From the NCBI GenBank assembly GCA_050175015.1, contig JBFXJJ010000023.1, positions 1 to 20,732 on the forward strand: 20,732 nt of DNA, read 5' to 3'. Shown in pieces: positions 2,755-5,582 of the stretch. Position numbers and translations under genes: made by a program. The notes beneath the pieces are model-generated. The model saw nothing but the letters and a program-made list of their open reading frames with translations, was not told where the DNA came from and ran no database searches. This DNA comes from Alphaproteobacteria bacterium (lineage in GTDB: Bacteria; Pseudomonadota; Alphaproteobacteria; JBFXJJ01). How positions within the stretch are numbered: the stretch's first letter is position 1; each line of letters opens with the position of its first letter.

Positions 2755-4995
2755 TTAATTTTCGCCTTCTTCTTTTCCGGCAACACCTGCATAAGCGCTA
2801 TTTGTGATGCGGTTCATTTTGCGCTTAATGCGATTATATCTGCTTTCTGGGGTTTCTGATGTTGTCTTGCTTTTTGTGTCGATAACTCCTTTAGTTGAAA
2901 TCAGGCTTTTTTTAGCGCACGTGTTGCTGGCTGAGTTCCATAGTTTTCCGTCGCTGCAAAGGCAGACCCCATTATGGTAAGTTGAACCGCTAGGGCAGCT
3001 TTCACACGATCCGCTAACCCAAACTTTGTTAGTTGAGCTGCAGTTGGAGCAAAAGGCATTGTATTGTCCAGCATTAATACATTTATCAACGCCGCATTCG
3101 CCATCGCTTTCACATAAAGGTTCAACACAATTTCCTGAACCGTCTGAGACAAAGCCGTCATCACAAGTGCACTGCATATTAACAGCGCAAGATACACAAT
3201 CGTAATTAGAGTTACACATCATTCCTTTTGTCTGGCATATCCCAGAAAGTCCGCTGGTAGAAGAACAAGCTTTGCAGTTGCTGCTGCGCCAATATGGAAG
3301 CACACTAGAACAGCAAGATAGCGTTGAGCGGTTGCAAGCCACACCTGATGGGCATAAGTCATCGCTGTAACTACAAGAGTTAGCACCCGTTGCCATATTA
3401 CATTCGCCGATACAGCAAACACTGTTATTCATACAAGTGCCTGTTCCGGTTGGTTTTTGAGAAGTTCCACAGCCGCAAGAGCCGCAACTTTCCGAAGCAT
3501 CGCAATCTATGCACGTTCCCGTTCCTGAGCAACTTCTGCCTGCATTACAGCTATCTGCGGAACACTCGCATACGCCGTTATTGTTGCTAACTATGCAGTT
3601 AGGGTGTTCGCCCGAACAACTACTGCCAGGAATACATACGCCGCCACTTAAAACCGCACAGCCAGAGCAAGTAACGCACGCAGAATTGCCTTGAAATACA
3701 GGATAGCTGCTTGGAGGCATACACCAAACATTTTCAAAATCCCAACCTGAAAAAGTGCTTTGCACTTTCATCTCAGCTGTGGTTTTGCCGATACCTCCAG
3801 CACTAGATGTCATACCTGTTGTTTGTTTATCCCAATAGCTGAAGCTGCTGGTCAATGAACTTGCGCTCCCGATTAAACCGCCAACACTGCTCGATCCTGA
3901 TACCGCCCCGACGGCATAACTGTTAATAACAGAAGAGCTTTCAACTCTGCCGATTAACCCGCCGATATGGTTGTGTCCTGTAACTTTTCCTGTTGTATAG
4001 CAGTTGGTTACACTGGAGCTGTTTTGTATTTTGCCTGCCAAACCGCCTGCCCAGTCATCACCACTGCCGCGGCTGCTTATAATATTGCCAGTAGCATAGC
4101 ATTTGCTGATAGAAGTATTATTGCCTCTTCCTACAATACCTCCCAAATAGTCATCACCTGTTATGCTTCCTTTGCTATAGCTGTTTTTAATAACAGAAGC
4201 TTCGGCATAACCAGCAATCAAACCAAGGTGAAAATTACCATAAATGCTTCCTGTGGTATAACAGTTATCCACGGTTGAATTTAATAGTTTGCCAACGAGG
4301 GCGCCCATATAATCATCACCTGAGCCGTGGTTTGTTAAAGAACCTGTTGCATAAGAAGAGCTAATAGTTACCCCAGAAGCATAACCAATTAAACCGCCAA
4401 CAAAATCATCCCCGTCGATAGCTGCTTTAGAGAAACTTCCGGTTGTTGTTCCTCCTGTAGTATAGCCAACAAGCCCTCCAATATAATGGCCAACACCATA
4501 TACGGCACCTGTGGTATAACTGCCAGTTATATTAAGTGTTCCTGTCGCATACCCGACTAATCCTCCTGCAAAATCATTGGAACCACCAGTTGATTTGACT
4601 GTTCCTTTAGAATAACAGTTGCTAATGTTAGTTGTTCCTAAAGATTGTCCTGCAATGGCTCCGATATAATCTCCGCCACCAGAATAAATATACGTGTTTT
4701 CAAAACCAAGATTGCTGATGTTGGCACTATTAACATAACCAAATAATCCTTGATAATTAGCTCCACGGTTAATATAAAAACTTATAATTTTATATCCCTT
4801 GCCATCTAAGGTGCCAATAAAAGGGCTTGAGCTGCTGCCAATAGGAGCAAAACCTTGTCCTGAGTTCCAGCTTGAGGTTGCACTGCAATCAATATCGCCT
4901 GATAAGTAGTAGCTGCCCGCAAGATTGTTTTTAATTGCTTGAAGTTCGGTACAGCTTGTAATTGCTGTTTGACTATAACCGTAATAAGGATATAT
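2755..4995 (-). CDS. Headless body of secreted GLUG-repeat / Cys-rich (EGF-like) surface protein 2; 763 aa when fused to its inverted leader
   Basis: The track ORF 2755..4308 extends 229 stop-free codons upstream: IYPYYGYSQTAITSCTELQAIKNNLAGSYYLSGDIDCSATSSWNSGQGFAPIGSSSSPFIGTLDGKGYKI...GLFG... No start codon occurs before the in-frame TAA at 5058-5056. It has multiple GGL(V/I)G repeats, YWDKQTTG, GWDFENVW, and about 260 aa rich in Cys. Confidence 0.9.
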   Translation of the reverse strand: MYPYYGYSQTAITSCTELQAIKNNLAGSYYLSGDIDCSATSSWNSGQGFAPIGSSSSPFIGTLDGKGYKIISFYINRGANYQGLFGYVNSANISNLGFENTYIYSGGGDYIGAIAGQSLGTTNISNCYSKGTVKSTGGSNDFAGGLVGYATGTLNITGSYTTGAVYGVGHYIGGLVGYTTGGTTTGSFSKAAIDGDDFVGGLIGYASGVTISSSYATGSLTNHGSGDDYMGALVGKLLNSTVDNCYTTGSIYGNFHLGLIAGYAEASVIKNSYSKGSITGDDYLGGIVGRGNNTSISKCYATGNIISSRGSGDDWAGGLAGKIQNSSSVTNCYTTGKVTGHNHIGGLIGRVESSSVINSYAVGAVSGSSSVGGLIGSASSLTSSFSYWDKQTTGMTSSAGGIGKTTAEMKVQSTFSGWDFENVWCMPPSSYPVFQGNSACVTCSGCAVLSGGVCIPGSSCSGEHPNCIVSNNNGVCECSADSCNAGRSCSGTGTCIDCDASESCGSCGCGTSQKPTGTGTCMNNSVCCIGECNMATGANSCSYSDDLCPSGVACNRSTLSCCSSVLPYWRSSNCKACSSTSGLSGICQTKGMMCNSNYDCVSCAVNMQCTCDDGFVSDGSGNCVEPLCESDGECGVDKCINAGQYNAFCSNCSSTNKVWVSGSCESCPSGSTYHNGVCLCSDGKLWNSASNTCAKKSLISTKGVIDTKSKTTSETPESRYNRIKRKMNRITNSAYAGVAGKEEGEN
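4974..4994. repeat. Left recombination site of switch 2: TATAACC-GTAATAA-GGATATA
   Basis: Arms identical to 1831-1851, with a different 7-bp spacer. Confidence 0.85.
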
Positions 4996-5045
4996 CCATA
5001 AAAAACAGGGTATTATGCTTTTTTGTTGATTAAAAAAACATTTAA

Positions 5046-5058
5046 AATCAAAGTGTTA
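5046..5058 (+). promoter_or_regulatory. IHF-consensus site (AATCAAAGTGTTA)
   Basis: Perfect WATCAANNNNTTR match, offset 71 from the IR start. Confidence 0.6.
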
Positions 5059-5110
5059 TTTTTTATAACAAAAAATAACAAAAATATTTATGAAAAAAAT
5101 GTTATAAATA

Positions 5111-5128
5111 AATACCCATATGTTACCC
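5111..5128 (+). repeat. GTTACCC-type direct repeat pair A, switch 2
   Basis: AATACCC at 5111 and GTTACCC at 5122, 11-bp period. Confidence 0.65.
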
Positions 5129-5163
5129 AGTTAAAAATGATTTTTTGATAAAAAAACATTTAA

Positions 5164-5176
5164 TATCAGTATGTTA
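5164..5176 (+). promoter_or_regulatory. IHF-like site (TATCAGTATGTTA)
   Basis: One mismatch to consensus, offset 189 from the IR start. Confidence 0.55.
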
Positions 5177-5220
5177 TATTAATATTTAAAGAAGCAAGCA
5201 AGATTATTTATAAATGCACC

Positions 5221-5238
5221 GTTACCCCTTTGTTACCC
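5221..5238 (+). repeat. GTTACCC direct repeat pair B, switch 2
   Basis: GTTACCC at 5221 and 5232, 11-bp period. Confidence 0.75.
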
Positions 5239-5406
5239 ATAACTATAATAAAAAAATAAACACAATAAAAACAATTGGTTAATTATATTTTTTTTGGTGT
5301 TAAATTTTTTAAAAAAATTGTTATCAGGCTTTTTTATCAGTTTTAGAAACAATGGCGTTTGTTGAAAATATATGGTCAATCCTCCAAGATGAAATGTCTT
5401 TTAATC

Positions 5407-5479
5407 TTGCAATACTGTTGAATTTGTATCAGAATAAATTTAATTAAAAACAAAAATATATAATTATTATAGGAAAGGA
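5407..5479 (+). promoter_or_regulatory. Putative sigma70-type promoter and RBS inside switch 2
   Basis: TTGCAA(5407)-N17-CAGAAT(5430), TATAAT at 5459, and RBS AGGAAAGGA at 5471-5479. Confidence 0.55.
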
Positions 5480-5486
5480 CAAGACC

Positions 5487-5582
5487 ATGTTTAGTAAAAT
5501 AAAGTTTATAGGTCTGTTGTTTTTGATAATAACCTTAATATATCCTTATTACAGTTATGATTATATTTGTAAAAAATGTTAA
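5487..5582 (+). CDS. Inverted 5' leader (Sec signal peptide) of GLUG protein 2; OFF-state product is a 31-aa dead-end peptide
   Basis: MFSKIKFIGLLFLIITLIYPYYSY-DYICKKC*, paralogous to leader 1, with a strong RBS. Confidence 0.8.
   Translation: MFSKIKFIGLLFLIITLIYPYYSYDYICKKC
5539..5559. repeat. Right recombination site of switch 2: TATATCC-TTATTAC-AGTTATG
   Basis: Inverted copy of 4974-4994 with an identical spacer. The mismatches are in the outer arm. Confidence 0.85.

Follow-up and report, generated by a model that had tools for sequence, protein, structure and literature searches.

A putative invertible cassette carrying the start codon and leader of a start-less GLUG-repeat gene in an uncultured alphaproteobacterium

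How could a gene be expressed if its reading frame stays open for hundreds of codons before the first start codon is reached? The question is raised by a locus in the window analysed here, which is the whole of contig C23 (20,732 nucleotides, nt) of G000, a metagenome-assembled genome (MAG) of 2.53 Mb in 49 contigs with 35.5% G+C, obtained from a landfill metagenome. The gene occupies positions 2755-4995 of the minus strand (746 sense codons and a stop), and its 5' end lies in one arm of an inverted repeat. The segment delimited by that repeat, 4975-5558, is in our reading probably (at roughly 0.8) a site-specific invertible cassette that serves as an ON/OFF phase-variation switch, here called switch 2. 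The observations behind this reading are the anatomy of the locus, a family of sister loci, the co-variation of their arms, the in-frame geometry of the joined parts and one locus in the opposite orientation. The host is an uncultured, deep-branching alphaproteobacterium; the chorismate synthase encoded in the window shows 66-69% identity with proteins under the names Alphaproteobacteria or Rhodospirillales (top match 76%), and the nearest genomes compared with G000 are related to it at class level only.

A start-less gene and a leader directed away from it

The listed open reading frame (ORF) of 517 amino acids (aa), 2755-4308, begins at the first ATG, GTG or TTG of its frame after a stop. 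Upstream of 4308 the frame is open for 229 codons to the arm and for 20 codons past it, which makes 249 codons without any of these triplets, and the 229 codons that reach the arm contain coding modules, in agreement with the initial annotation, which had credited the 517-aa ORF with 229 further sense codons lacking a start. The product of the start-less gene (hereafter the body) has an M26_N-like module at its N-terminus, GLUG repeats, and a Cys-rich stretch of about 260 aa at its C-terminus. The Pfam family Glug was matched with 93.3 bits (cut-off 20.5), and Peptidase_M26_N was matched at residues 18-130 with 24.9 bits, which is under the cut-off of 27.7; a sister gene scored 70.5 bits. There was no Pfam match in the body to the M26 catalytic peptidase domain that would mark a ZmpA/B/C-type IgA1 metalloprotease, a PDB search with the body gave a weak match confined to the N-terminal repeat region of IgA1 proteases, and the Cys-rich last 260 or so residues matched no family. 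Both the M26_N-like and the GLUG matches fall within the 229 start-less codons, which are conserved in paralogues with 43-62% identity. The similarity to paralogues ends at the arm, and the earlier remark that the frame stops looking protein-like at the inverted repeat is borne out. In proteins P0002, P0014, P0019 and P0108 of other organisms, a signal peptide directly precedes the same QT-I--C-ELQ module, arguing that the start-less body begins where the mature secreted protein would begin. Judged by conservation and domain content, the 229 upstream codons are real coding sequence.

The inverted repeat was found as annotated. Its body-side (proximal) arm at 4975-4995 (ATAACCGTAATAAGGATATAT) and its distal arm at 5538-5558 are each 21 nt long, 95% complementary (20 of 21 positions) and 542 nt apart. 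A search of the window that tolerated up to three mismatches returned these two sites and no others, and in 100 shuffles two matches were never obtained. The sole mismatch sets C4980 against A5553, where the partner arm predicts G. Both arms are in-frame coding sequence for I-Y-P-Y-Y-(G/S)-Y, at the start of the body (I-Y-P-Y-Y-G-Y, on the minus strand of the proximal arm) and at the end of the leader, where the distal arm corresponds to codons 18-24 of the leader ORF.

In the OFF state, which is the assembled one, the leader ORF extends over 5487-5582 on the plus strand (31 codons and a stop) and reads MFSKIKFIGLLFLIITLIYPYYSYDYICKKC from the ATG at 5487; its stop at 5580-5582 explains why the initial annotation had drawn the end of the switch at 5582. 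The first 20 residues are signal-peptide-like, with two Lys among the first seven residues, no Asp or Glu and a mean Kyte-Doolittle hydropathy of 3.14 over residues 7-18, and G-Y-S before Q is compatible by eye with a small-x-small cleavage site. The alignment of this leader with leader 1 (ATG 2322) of a sister switch, noted earlier, was reproduced. A ribosome-binding site (RBS), GGAAAGG, is located at 5472-5478 (+), 8 nt 5' of the ATG, and its GAAAGG is conserved among the cassettes. A promoter-like element (TTGCAA-17 nt-CAGAAT, 5407-5435, +), also directed away from the body, belongs to a block conserved in all 12 cassettes of the family described below, and its counterpart in switch 1 was detected by a consensus scan at 2251-2279. 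We computed the outcome of inversion by reversing each cassette in a script. Reversal of switch 2 yields an ORF of 763 aa, the length that had been predicted for the rebuilt protein. A terminator scan found none, and Rfam gave nothing at E≤0.1 in window positions 1700-5800.

Sister loci and the co-variation of their core sites

A tblastn search of G000 with the first 140 residues of the body uncovered 12 paralogous N-termini, switch 2 among them. All 12 have an inverted partner arm 546-587 nt upstream and are assembled OFF, with the leader directed away from the body, and in all 12 (switch 2 and 11 of 11 sisters) in-silico inversion fused the ATG and leader in frame to the body. When the whole genome was searched blindly, exactly 12 inverted CCT-N6-RGTTA pairs with a shared hexamer were found among 109 sites, and the direct-orientation control gave none. 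In each of the 12 loci, 540-920 codons of the body are free of stops; six of the frames are complete to a stop and six reach contig ends. Each leader has 20-22 residues up to Pro, one to three Lys or Arg, no Asp or Glu and a hydrophobic core, the mean hydropathy of the 12 being 2.2-3.1. The leader part is present in 12 genomic copies, all within switches, with no orphan copies, and every cassette copy with an identifiable partner gene is located at the same codon of that gene. Switch 1, the sister within the window, spans 1832-2393 (arms 1832-1851 and 2374-2393; leader ATG 2322, +). Its repeat is perfect over 18 nt and reaches 20 nt with one mismatch, it too is assembled OFF, and its GLUG body, on the minus strand, extends past the window start.

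The arms conform to a core consensus, TATCCT-N6-RGTTAY, and co-vary in its centre. The central 6 nt are identical between the two arms in 12/12 loci (72/72 positions), and each hexamer is unlike all others among the 12 GLUG loci; with the two further loci described below, a relic and a split locus, there are 14 distinct hexamers. Asn-Tyr is encoded by three hexamers in three loci, and Asn-Asn likewise by three in three. Since the same dipeptides are specified by different hexamers, the diversity lies at the level of DNA and not of the peptide. Directly after the hexamer, G is found in 12/12 body-side arms and A in 7/12 distal arms, including A5553. Being always G on the body side and drifting distally, this base appears to stay with the flanking DNA, outside the exchanged segment, and we infer that the strictly matched hexamer is the crossover region. 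The initial annotation had placed the single mismatch of the switch 2 repeat outside the spacer; this fits the recurrence of the same G/A difference in 7/12 loci with the central 6 nt matched in 12/12. Tyrosine recombinases require identical crossover regions in both partners, and because of this need for homology the partner arms would recombine with each other and not with those of other loci. The private hexamers could thus permit recombination within each arm pair and block cross-switch rearrangement.

A locus split between two contig ends (C11:1-4000, L144; C21:1-235, L145) is the fourteenth switch. Its core sites are at base 2 of C11 and at C21:110, and their hexamer, AATAAA, is unique to the locus. 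Immediately after the C11 core, a frame open for more than 1333 aa encodes a giant Cys-rich repeat protein without a Pfam match; this body protein is P0231 (1594 aa), which has the same C-terminal tail as the GLUG family. To the right of the core at C21:110 is the 85-nt block that follows the distal arm in five OFF loci, with local alignment scores of 105, 103, 90, 76 and 67 to the OFF flanks and at most 20 to body starts. The sequence on its left is the cassette end opposite the leader, in which a stop precedes Y-P by three codons and an exact IHF-consensus site (see below) is at the usual distance. The non-leader end is joined to the distal flank, indicating that the cassette is reversed relative to that flank, as expected of an ON-type locus, and the junction falls exactly at the core. 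C11 starts one base before TATCCT, at the first base common to both orientations, and we conjecture that this start would fit an assembly-graph branch from a mixed population.

When the C11 N-terminus was compared with 1.84 billion representative proteins, two matches were obtained, the same protein and P0230. P0230 (3360 aa, from another assembly) starts MFNKISILVSFGITFCAILVSS, followed by P-N-V-S-Y, and is colinear with the C11 body from this motif onward. A leader of the cassette type, fused at the core motif, is thus present in one continuous protein of another assembly. The support for real inversion is comparative, consisting at the sequence level of the sister locus in the opposite orientation and P0230.

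The thirteenth cassette, at C21:16228-16794 (L046:3228-3794), has the hexamer GATAAT and has kept the inner repeats and IHF-like sites. Its leader is weak, GAAAGG is absent and its "body" ends after about 35 codons; its neighbours are genes for a rubrerythrin (-) and an inosine-uridine nucleoside hydrolase (+). Possible readings are a relic and a switch that moves a promoter only. The genome total is at least 14 switches, comprising 12 GLUG genes, the giant Cys-rich repeat gene and this relic.

Relatives outside the genome are distant. None of the 40 nearest genomes, all related at the level of the class only, had the N-terminal module at E≤1e-8. Protein searches returned 106 near-length matches and two shorter ones, among which the core motif was found in P0003 only, with an OFF-type N-terminus. 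The sole exact match to the DNA pattern in genome contigs, L030, was attributed to chance, its best inverted partner matching at 12/18 positions in a stop-rich context, and a degenerate pattern gave no matches in metagenome contigs. A search for related loci gave 80 loci with generic GLUG proteins of 28-47% identity, none of which extends to the Cys-rich C-terminal part. Seven matches to the N-terminal module, in 6 of the 80 loci, had no inverted repeat of at least 15 nt nearby in a narrow scan that used one strict peptide motif.

Two minor features of the core sites and their surroundings were recorded. The 17-nt core of the switch at C10:87569 has a third exact copy at C10:80113-80129 (L146:1614-1630), about 7.4 kb away, on the opposite strand and at the junction of two plus-strand genes; it may have arisen by chance, be a remnant or serve a larger inversion. 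The conserved block of about 85 nt outside the distal core is present at C13:8869, C17:44311, C10:87569, C27:1570, C11:86931 and C21:110; within it, a 9-bp inverted repeat (AATAGTGTT ... AACACTATT) encloses an AT-rich loop. The remaining loci have a shorter stretch related to the block.

The cassette interior and a candidate recombinase

The positions of the promoter-like block, the RBS, the leader, three IHF-like sites and two repeat pairs are conserved in the 12 cassettes, and other stretches vary. From the body side, the order is core, A-tract with a site resembling WATCAANNNNTTR, the consensus for integration host factor (IHF), direct-repeat pair, second such site, GYTACCC-N4-GYTACCC, third site, variable stretch, promoter-like block, RBS, leader and core. 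In switch 2, all on the plus strand, these interior elements are the IHF-consensus-like site H1 (AATCAAAGTGTTA, 5046-5058), preceded by the A-tract; AATACCC / GTTACCC with an 11-nt period (5111-5128), which are candidate arm-type or operator sites; H2 (5164-5176, one mismatch); GTTACCC-N4-GTTACCC (5221-5238); and H3 (5269-5281, one mismatch). H1 is present with at most one mismatch in 12/12 cassettes, H2 in 12/12 and H3 in 11/12. The exact IHF consensus occurs 18 times on the forward (leader) strand and never on the reverse strand in 7,012 nt of cassettes, a density about 31-fold over the genome rate of 0.083 per kb per strand. Both ihfA and ihfB are encoded in G000, with scores over the NCBIfam cut-offs.

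The inner repeats are largely restricted to the switches. TACCY-N4-GYTACCC occurs 25 times in G000: 23 times in the 12 switches, once in the relic cassette and once upstream of a recombinase gene. NYTACCC was found as a tandem pair at 14 places, 11 of them in switches and three within 200 nt upstream of that gene, C1:263738-265012; none was found upstream of the other 15 recombinase ORFs. GYTACCC-N4-GYTACCC is present 12 times in G000, versus at most three times in any of 400 other genomes of the class, and its reversed control is absent from G000.

A census of G000 gave 16 tyrosine-recombinase ORFs and no serine recombinases. The product of C1:263738-265012 (424 aa) combines domains for arm binding, core binding and catalysis (Arm-DNA-bind_3, 49.7 bits with a cut-off of 27; Phage_integrase, 69 bits), in which the box residues TGCR, HTLRH, LGH and RY are present by eye. 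The gene is placed between xerD and lptF/G-lptD, with no tRNA nearby. Because the inner repeats occur elsewhere only upstream of this gene, we regard its product as the candidate invertase. Tandem recombinases on contig C39, three 354-aa integrases and P4-like integrases of 387-389 aa have no GYTACCC repeats upstream.

Two of these groups were of interest in their own right. Contig C39 is 3.9 kb long and has three consecutive same-strand ORFs (L040:138-3173) of 332, 317 and 339 aa; both of the two that were scanned gave matches to tyrosine-recombinase families, and the layout resembles a "recombinase in trio" element. The three 354-aa integrases (C3:16689-17753, C21:20517-21581 and C8:36047-37111) are near-identical, and the C21 copy adjoins tRNA-Leu; they are probably a repeated integrative element.

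Inversion at switch 2, the identity of the enzyme and the roles of the internal motifs are brought together in the following proposal. In the OFF state, the putative promoter, RBS, ATG and Sec-type leader of about 20 residues face away from the start-less gene for a large secreted GLUG-repeat, Cys-rich protein. A tyrosine recombinase would exchange strands in the central 6-7 nt of both cores and so flip the cassette, and in the ON state leader and body would form one reading frame through the Y-P-x-x-G-Y codons that they share, and a 763-aa precursor provided with a promoter and a signal peptide would result. Each cassette has the layout of a small attP, with two GYTACCC repeat pairs interleaved with three IHF-consensus sites between the cores; the N-terminal domain of the C1 integrase would bind the GYTACCC repeats, and IHF would help to fold the cassette so that the cores meet. 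We suggest, tentatively and as one possibility, that a domesticated lambda/P4-type integrase together with IHF runs at least 14 leader-flip switches, insulated from each other by their private hexamers, and that cells display one or a few of the very large secreted Cys-rich proteins at a time.

Orientation, alternative explanations and known systems

The sequencing data comprised three runs of one study, none of them an RNA run containing the stretch. The stretch was present in one run only, X1, which is possibly the source sample. X1 was examined as assembled contigs (window 1-7000), in which rare orientation variants are invisible. A break of X1 contigs and unitigs at 1810-1838 was considered as a sign of inversion and rejected, since it falls within the switch 1 core, short of where the two orientations would part; a 30-mer common to a paralogue explains it better.

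Several points weigh against the reading of 4975-5558 as an ON/OFF switch. No ON junction of switch 2 was present in the X1 contigs, the only contigs examined, and one X1 contig of 10,791 nt runs through 1810-7000 in the OFF orientation, a strand-changing joint being absent from it. The 12 GLUG loci and P0003, the only family member found outside the genome, are all OFF, and switching may be rare, conditional or lost. The split locus is read as ON-type from two contig ends; about 450 nt of its cassette is absent from the MAG, which puts the leader-body joint outside the assembled sequence, and P0230 was examined as a protein. A recombinase gene adjoining any switch or within the window was not found. 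The expression signals are also predictions: the promoter is a consensus-level match, the switch 2 copy reaching a consensus score of 8/12, under the scan threshold, and the leader looks like a Sec-type signal peptide, a putative assignment made by composition only. Finally, GYTACCC repeats at an 11-nt period would suit an OmpR-type regulator too.

Some of these points would be expected if the cassettes were frozen relics of an old inversion and the genes were decaying or permanently silenced. The uniform OFF state of the 12 GLUG loci and P0003, the lack of an ON junction in the contigs and the clear degeneration of the cassette at C21:16228-16794 are consistent with that explanation, but we consider it improbable given the open body frames in 12/12 loci, the conservation of leaders, RBS and promoter blocks, and the one locus in the other orientation. 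Moreover, hexamers that are the same within loci and have diverged between them would need ongoing selection or conversion. It is considerably less probable that translation begins at the internal ATG at 4308, the first canonical start of the frame, and that the upstream frame is an accident or remnant. The conservation of the 229 upstream codons at 43-62% identity to paralogues, the M26_N-like module (residues 18-130) and GLUG repeats among them, and the signal peptide located just before the same module in P0002, P0014, P0019 and P0108 all argue against such a start, from which the 517-aa product would emerge with no export signal. The segments of about 580 nt are short, AT-rich and multi-copy and have inverted-repeat ends, which are properties of non-autonomous transposable elements of the MITE (miniature inverted-repeat transposable element) type inserted in the 5' ends of genes. 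We give this explanation the least credence of all: copies with an identifiable partner gene are all at the same codon, the leader has 12 copies that are all in switches, other cassette-like pieces being the relic and the C21 end only, and the arms are in-frame coding sequence on both sides. In addition, the ends match within a copy and differ between copies in the central 6 nt, the opposite of ends recognised by a transposase, and no target-site duplication came to notice, although no search aimed at one was made.

A weightier alternative, which we find doubtful, accepts the inversion and takes the GYTACCC repeats to be operators of a transcription factor, for example of the OmpR family, with another recombinase (XerC/D or another integrase) flipping the cassette. 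An 11-nt period of direct repeats is compatible with winged-helix response regulators, one repeat pair is situated between a TATAAT-like hexamer and the RBS of the integrase gene, which is a typical operator position, and XerC and XerD are encoded in the genome. However, the repeats are found nowhere else, and the regulon would consist of the cassettes and one arm-binding integrase, for which direct binding is the simpler explanation. An attP-int region normally has arm-type sites next to the int gene, in good agreement with the position of the repeats upstream of the C1 gene, and the interleaved IHF-consensus sites fit an intasome.

Returning to the reading as an invertible switch, we compared the cassettes with known systems. 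The fimS element of Escherichia coli is an ON/OFF promoter inversion catalysed by the tyrosine recombinases FimB and FimE, with short inverted repeats and a dependence on IHF sites within or beside the element. The cassettes resemble it as short-inverted-repeat inversion switches with IHF sites, which here are recognised by consensus only. However, fimS carries a promoter only, and FimB and FimE are small recombinases that lack an arm-binding domain, whereas such a domain is part of the candidate enzyme here and candidate arm sites are repeated within the cassette. Lambda attP has core sites, separate arm-type sites in direct repeat and interleaved IHF sites, and the cassettes share with lambda attP and Int the core, the candidate arm and IHF-like sites and a three-domain candidate enzyme. 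Tyrosine recombinases with an arm-binding (AB) domain, composed of arm-binding, core-binding and catalytic domains, are described in a classification of tyrosine recombinases as mobile-element integrases, and the shufflon invertase Rci as lacking the AB domain (PMC8138268). Lambda-type systems integrate and excise mobile elements, whereas those described here would be chromosomal inversion switches, for which an AB-domain architecture would be unusual.

The closest likeness in the way the gene is rebuilt is to mollicutes. At vsa of Mycoplasma pulmonis and mba/UU172 of Ureaplasma, inversion sets the promoter, RBS and 5' ORF end before silent bodies, according to PMC3047005. In common with the present loci, the repeat is in the 5' coding region, and promoter, RBS and signal peptide are moved to a start-less body. 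In those systems, a single expression site is combined in turn with several bodies through a recombination sequence common to them, whereas here each gene has a private ON/OFF cassette with a core centre of its own, in an alphaproteobacterium and not in a mollicute. The same source, citing Horino 2009, describes the mpl genes of Mycoplasma penetrans (recombinase MYPE2900) as having per-gene invertible elements with gene-specific repeats. These are likewise many paralogous surface-protein genes, each with its own element and with repeats that differ between genes; the mpl elements, as presented there, carry a promoter only and have 12-bp repeats, whereas here the start codon and signal peptide are included as well and one arm is in coding sequence.

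Partial intergenic invertons and gene-altering inversions, with one repeat in a gene and one outside it, are covered by bioRxiv 10.1101/2023.03.11.532203 and PMC9881135. The cases of Chanin et al. and Milman et al. mostly have a constant upstream part and alternative downstream parts (shufflons), whereas here the upstream part flips, and signal peptides are not mentioned in the text of either source. Among the papers listed in our literature searches, none connects GLUG proteins with phase variation or inversion and none combines arm-type sites with an inversion switch. The present system would unite both mycoplasma principles in a proteobacterium and add private crossover hexamers and an attP-like interior.

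DNA inversion is a familiar route to phase variation. Switches that themselves bear a start codon and export signal have been reported mostly from mycoplasmas and ureaplasmas, where a single expression site is shared. In the uncultured alphaproteobacterium studied here, a free-standing ON/OFF type appears to have expanded to at least 14 loci. Sites that are alike outside and different in the centre follow the principle of engineered lox and FRT variants, and natural heterospecific sites of this kind would explain how many switches could share one enzyme without scrambling the chromosome. The attP-like interior and the motif link to the C1 gene suggest an invertase that originated as the integrase of a mobile element. 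For annotation, it is relevant that gene callers give switch genes truncated or with wrong internal starts, as in P0003, P0004 and the 517-aa ORF, and that surface-protein repertoires can be mis-annotated in MAGs as a result.

Next to the switches, the window encodes at 6647-8206 (-) a 519-aa protein with phosphotransferase (APH) and AAA_33 / zeta-toxin-like kinase domains, and this gene is adjoined by a tandem Usp-like gene at 5743-6624.

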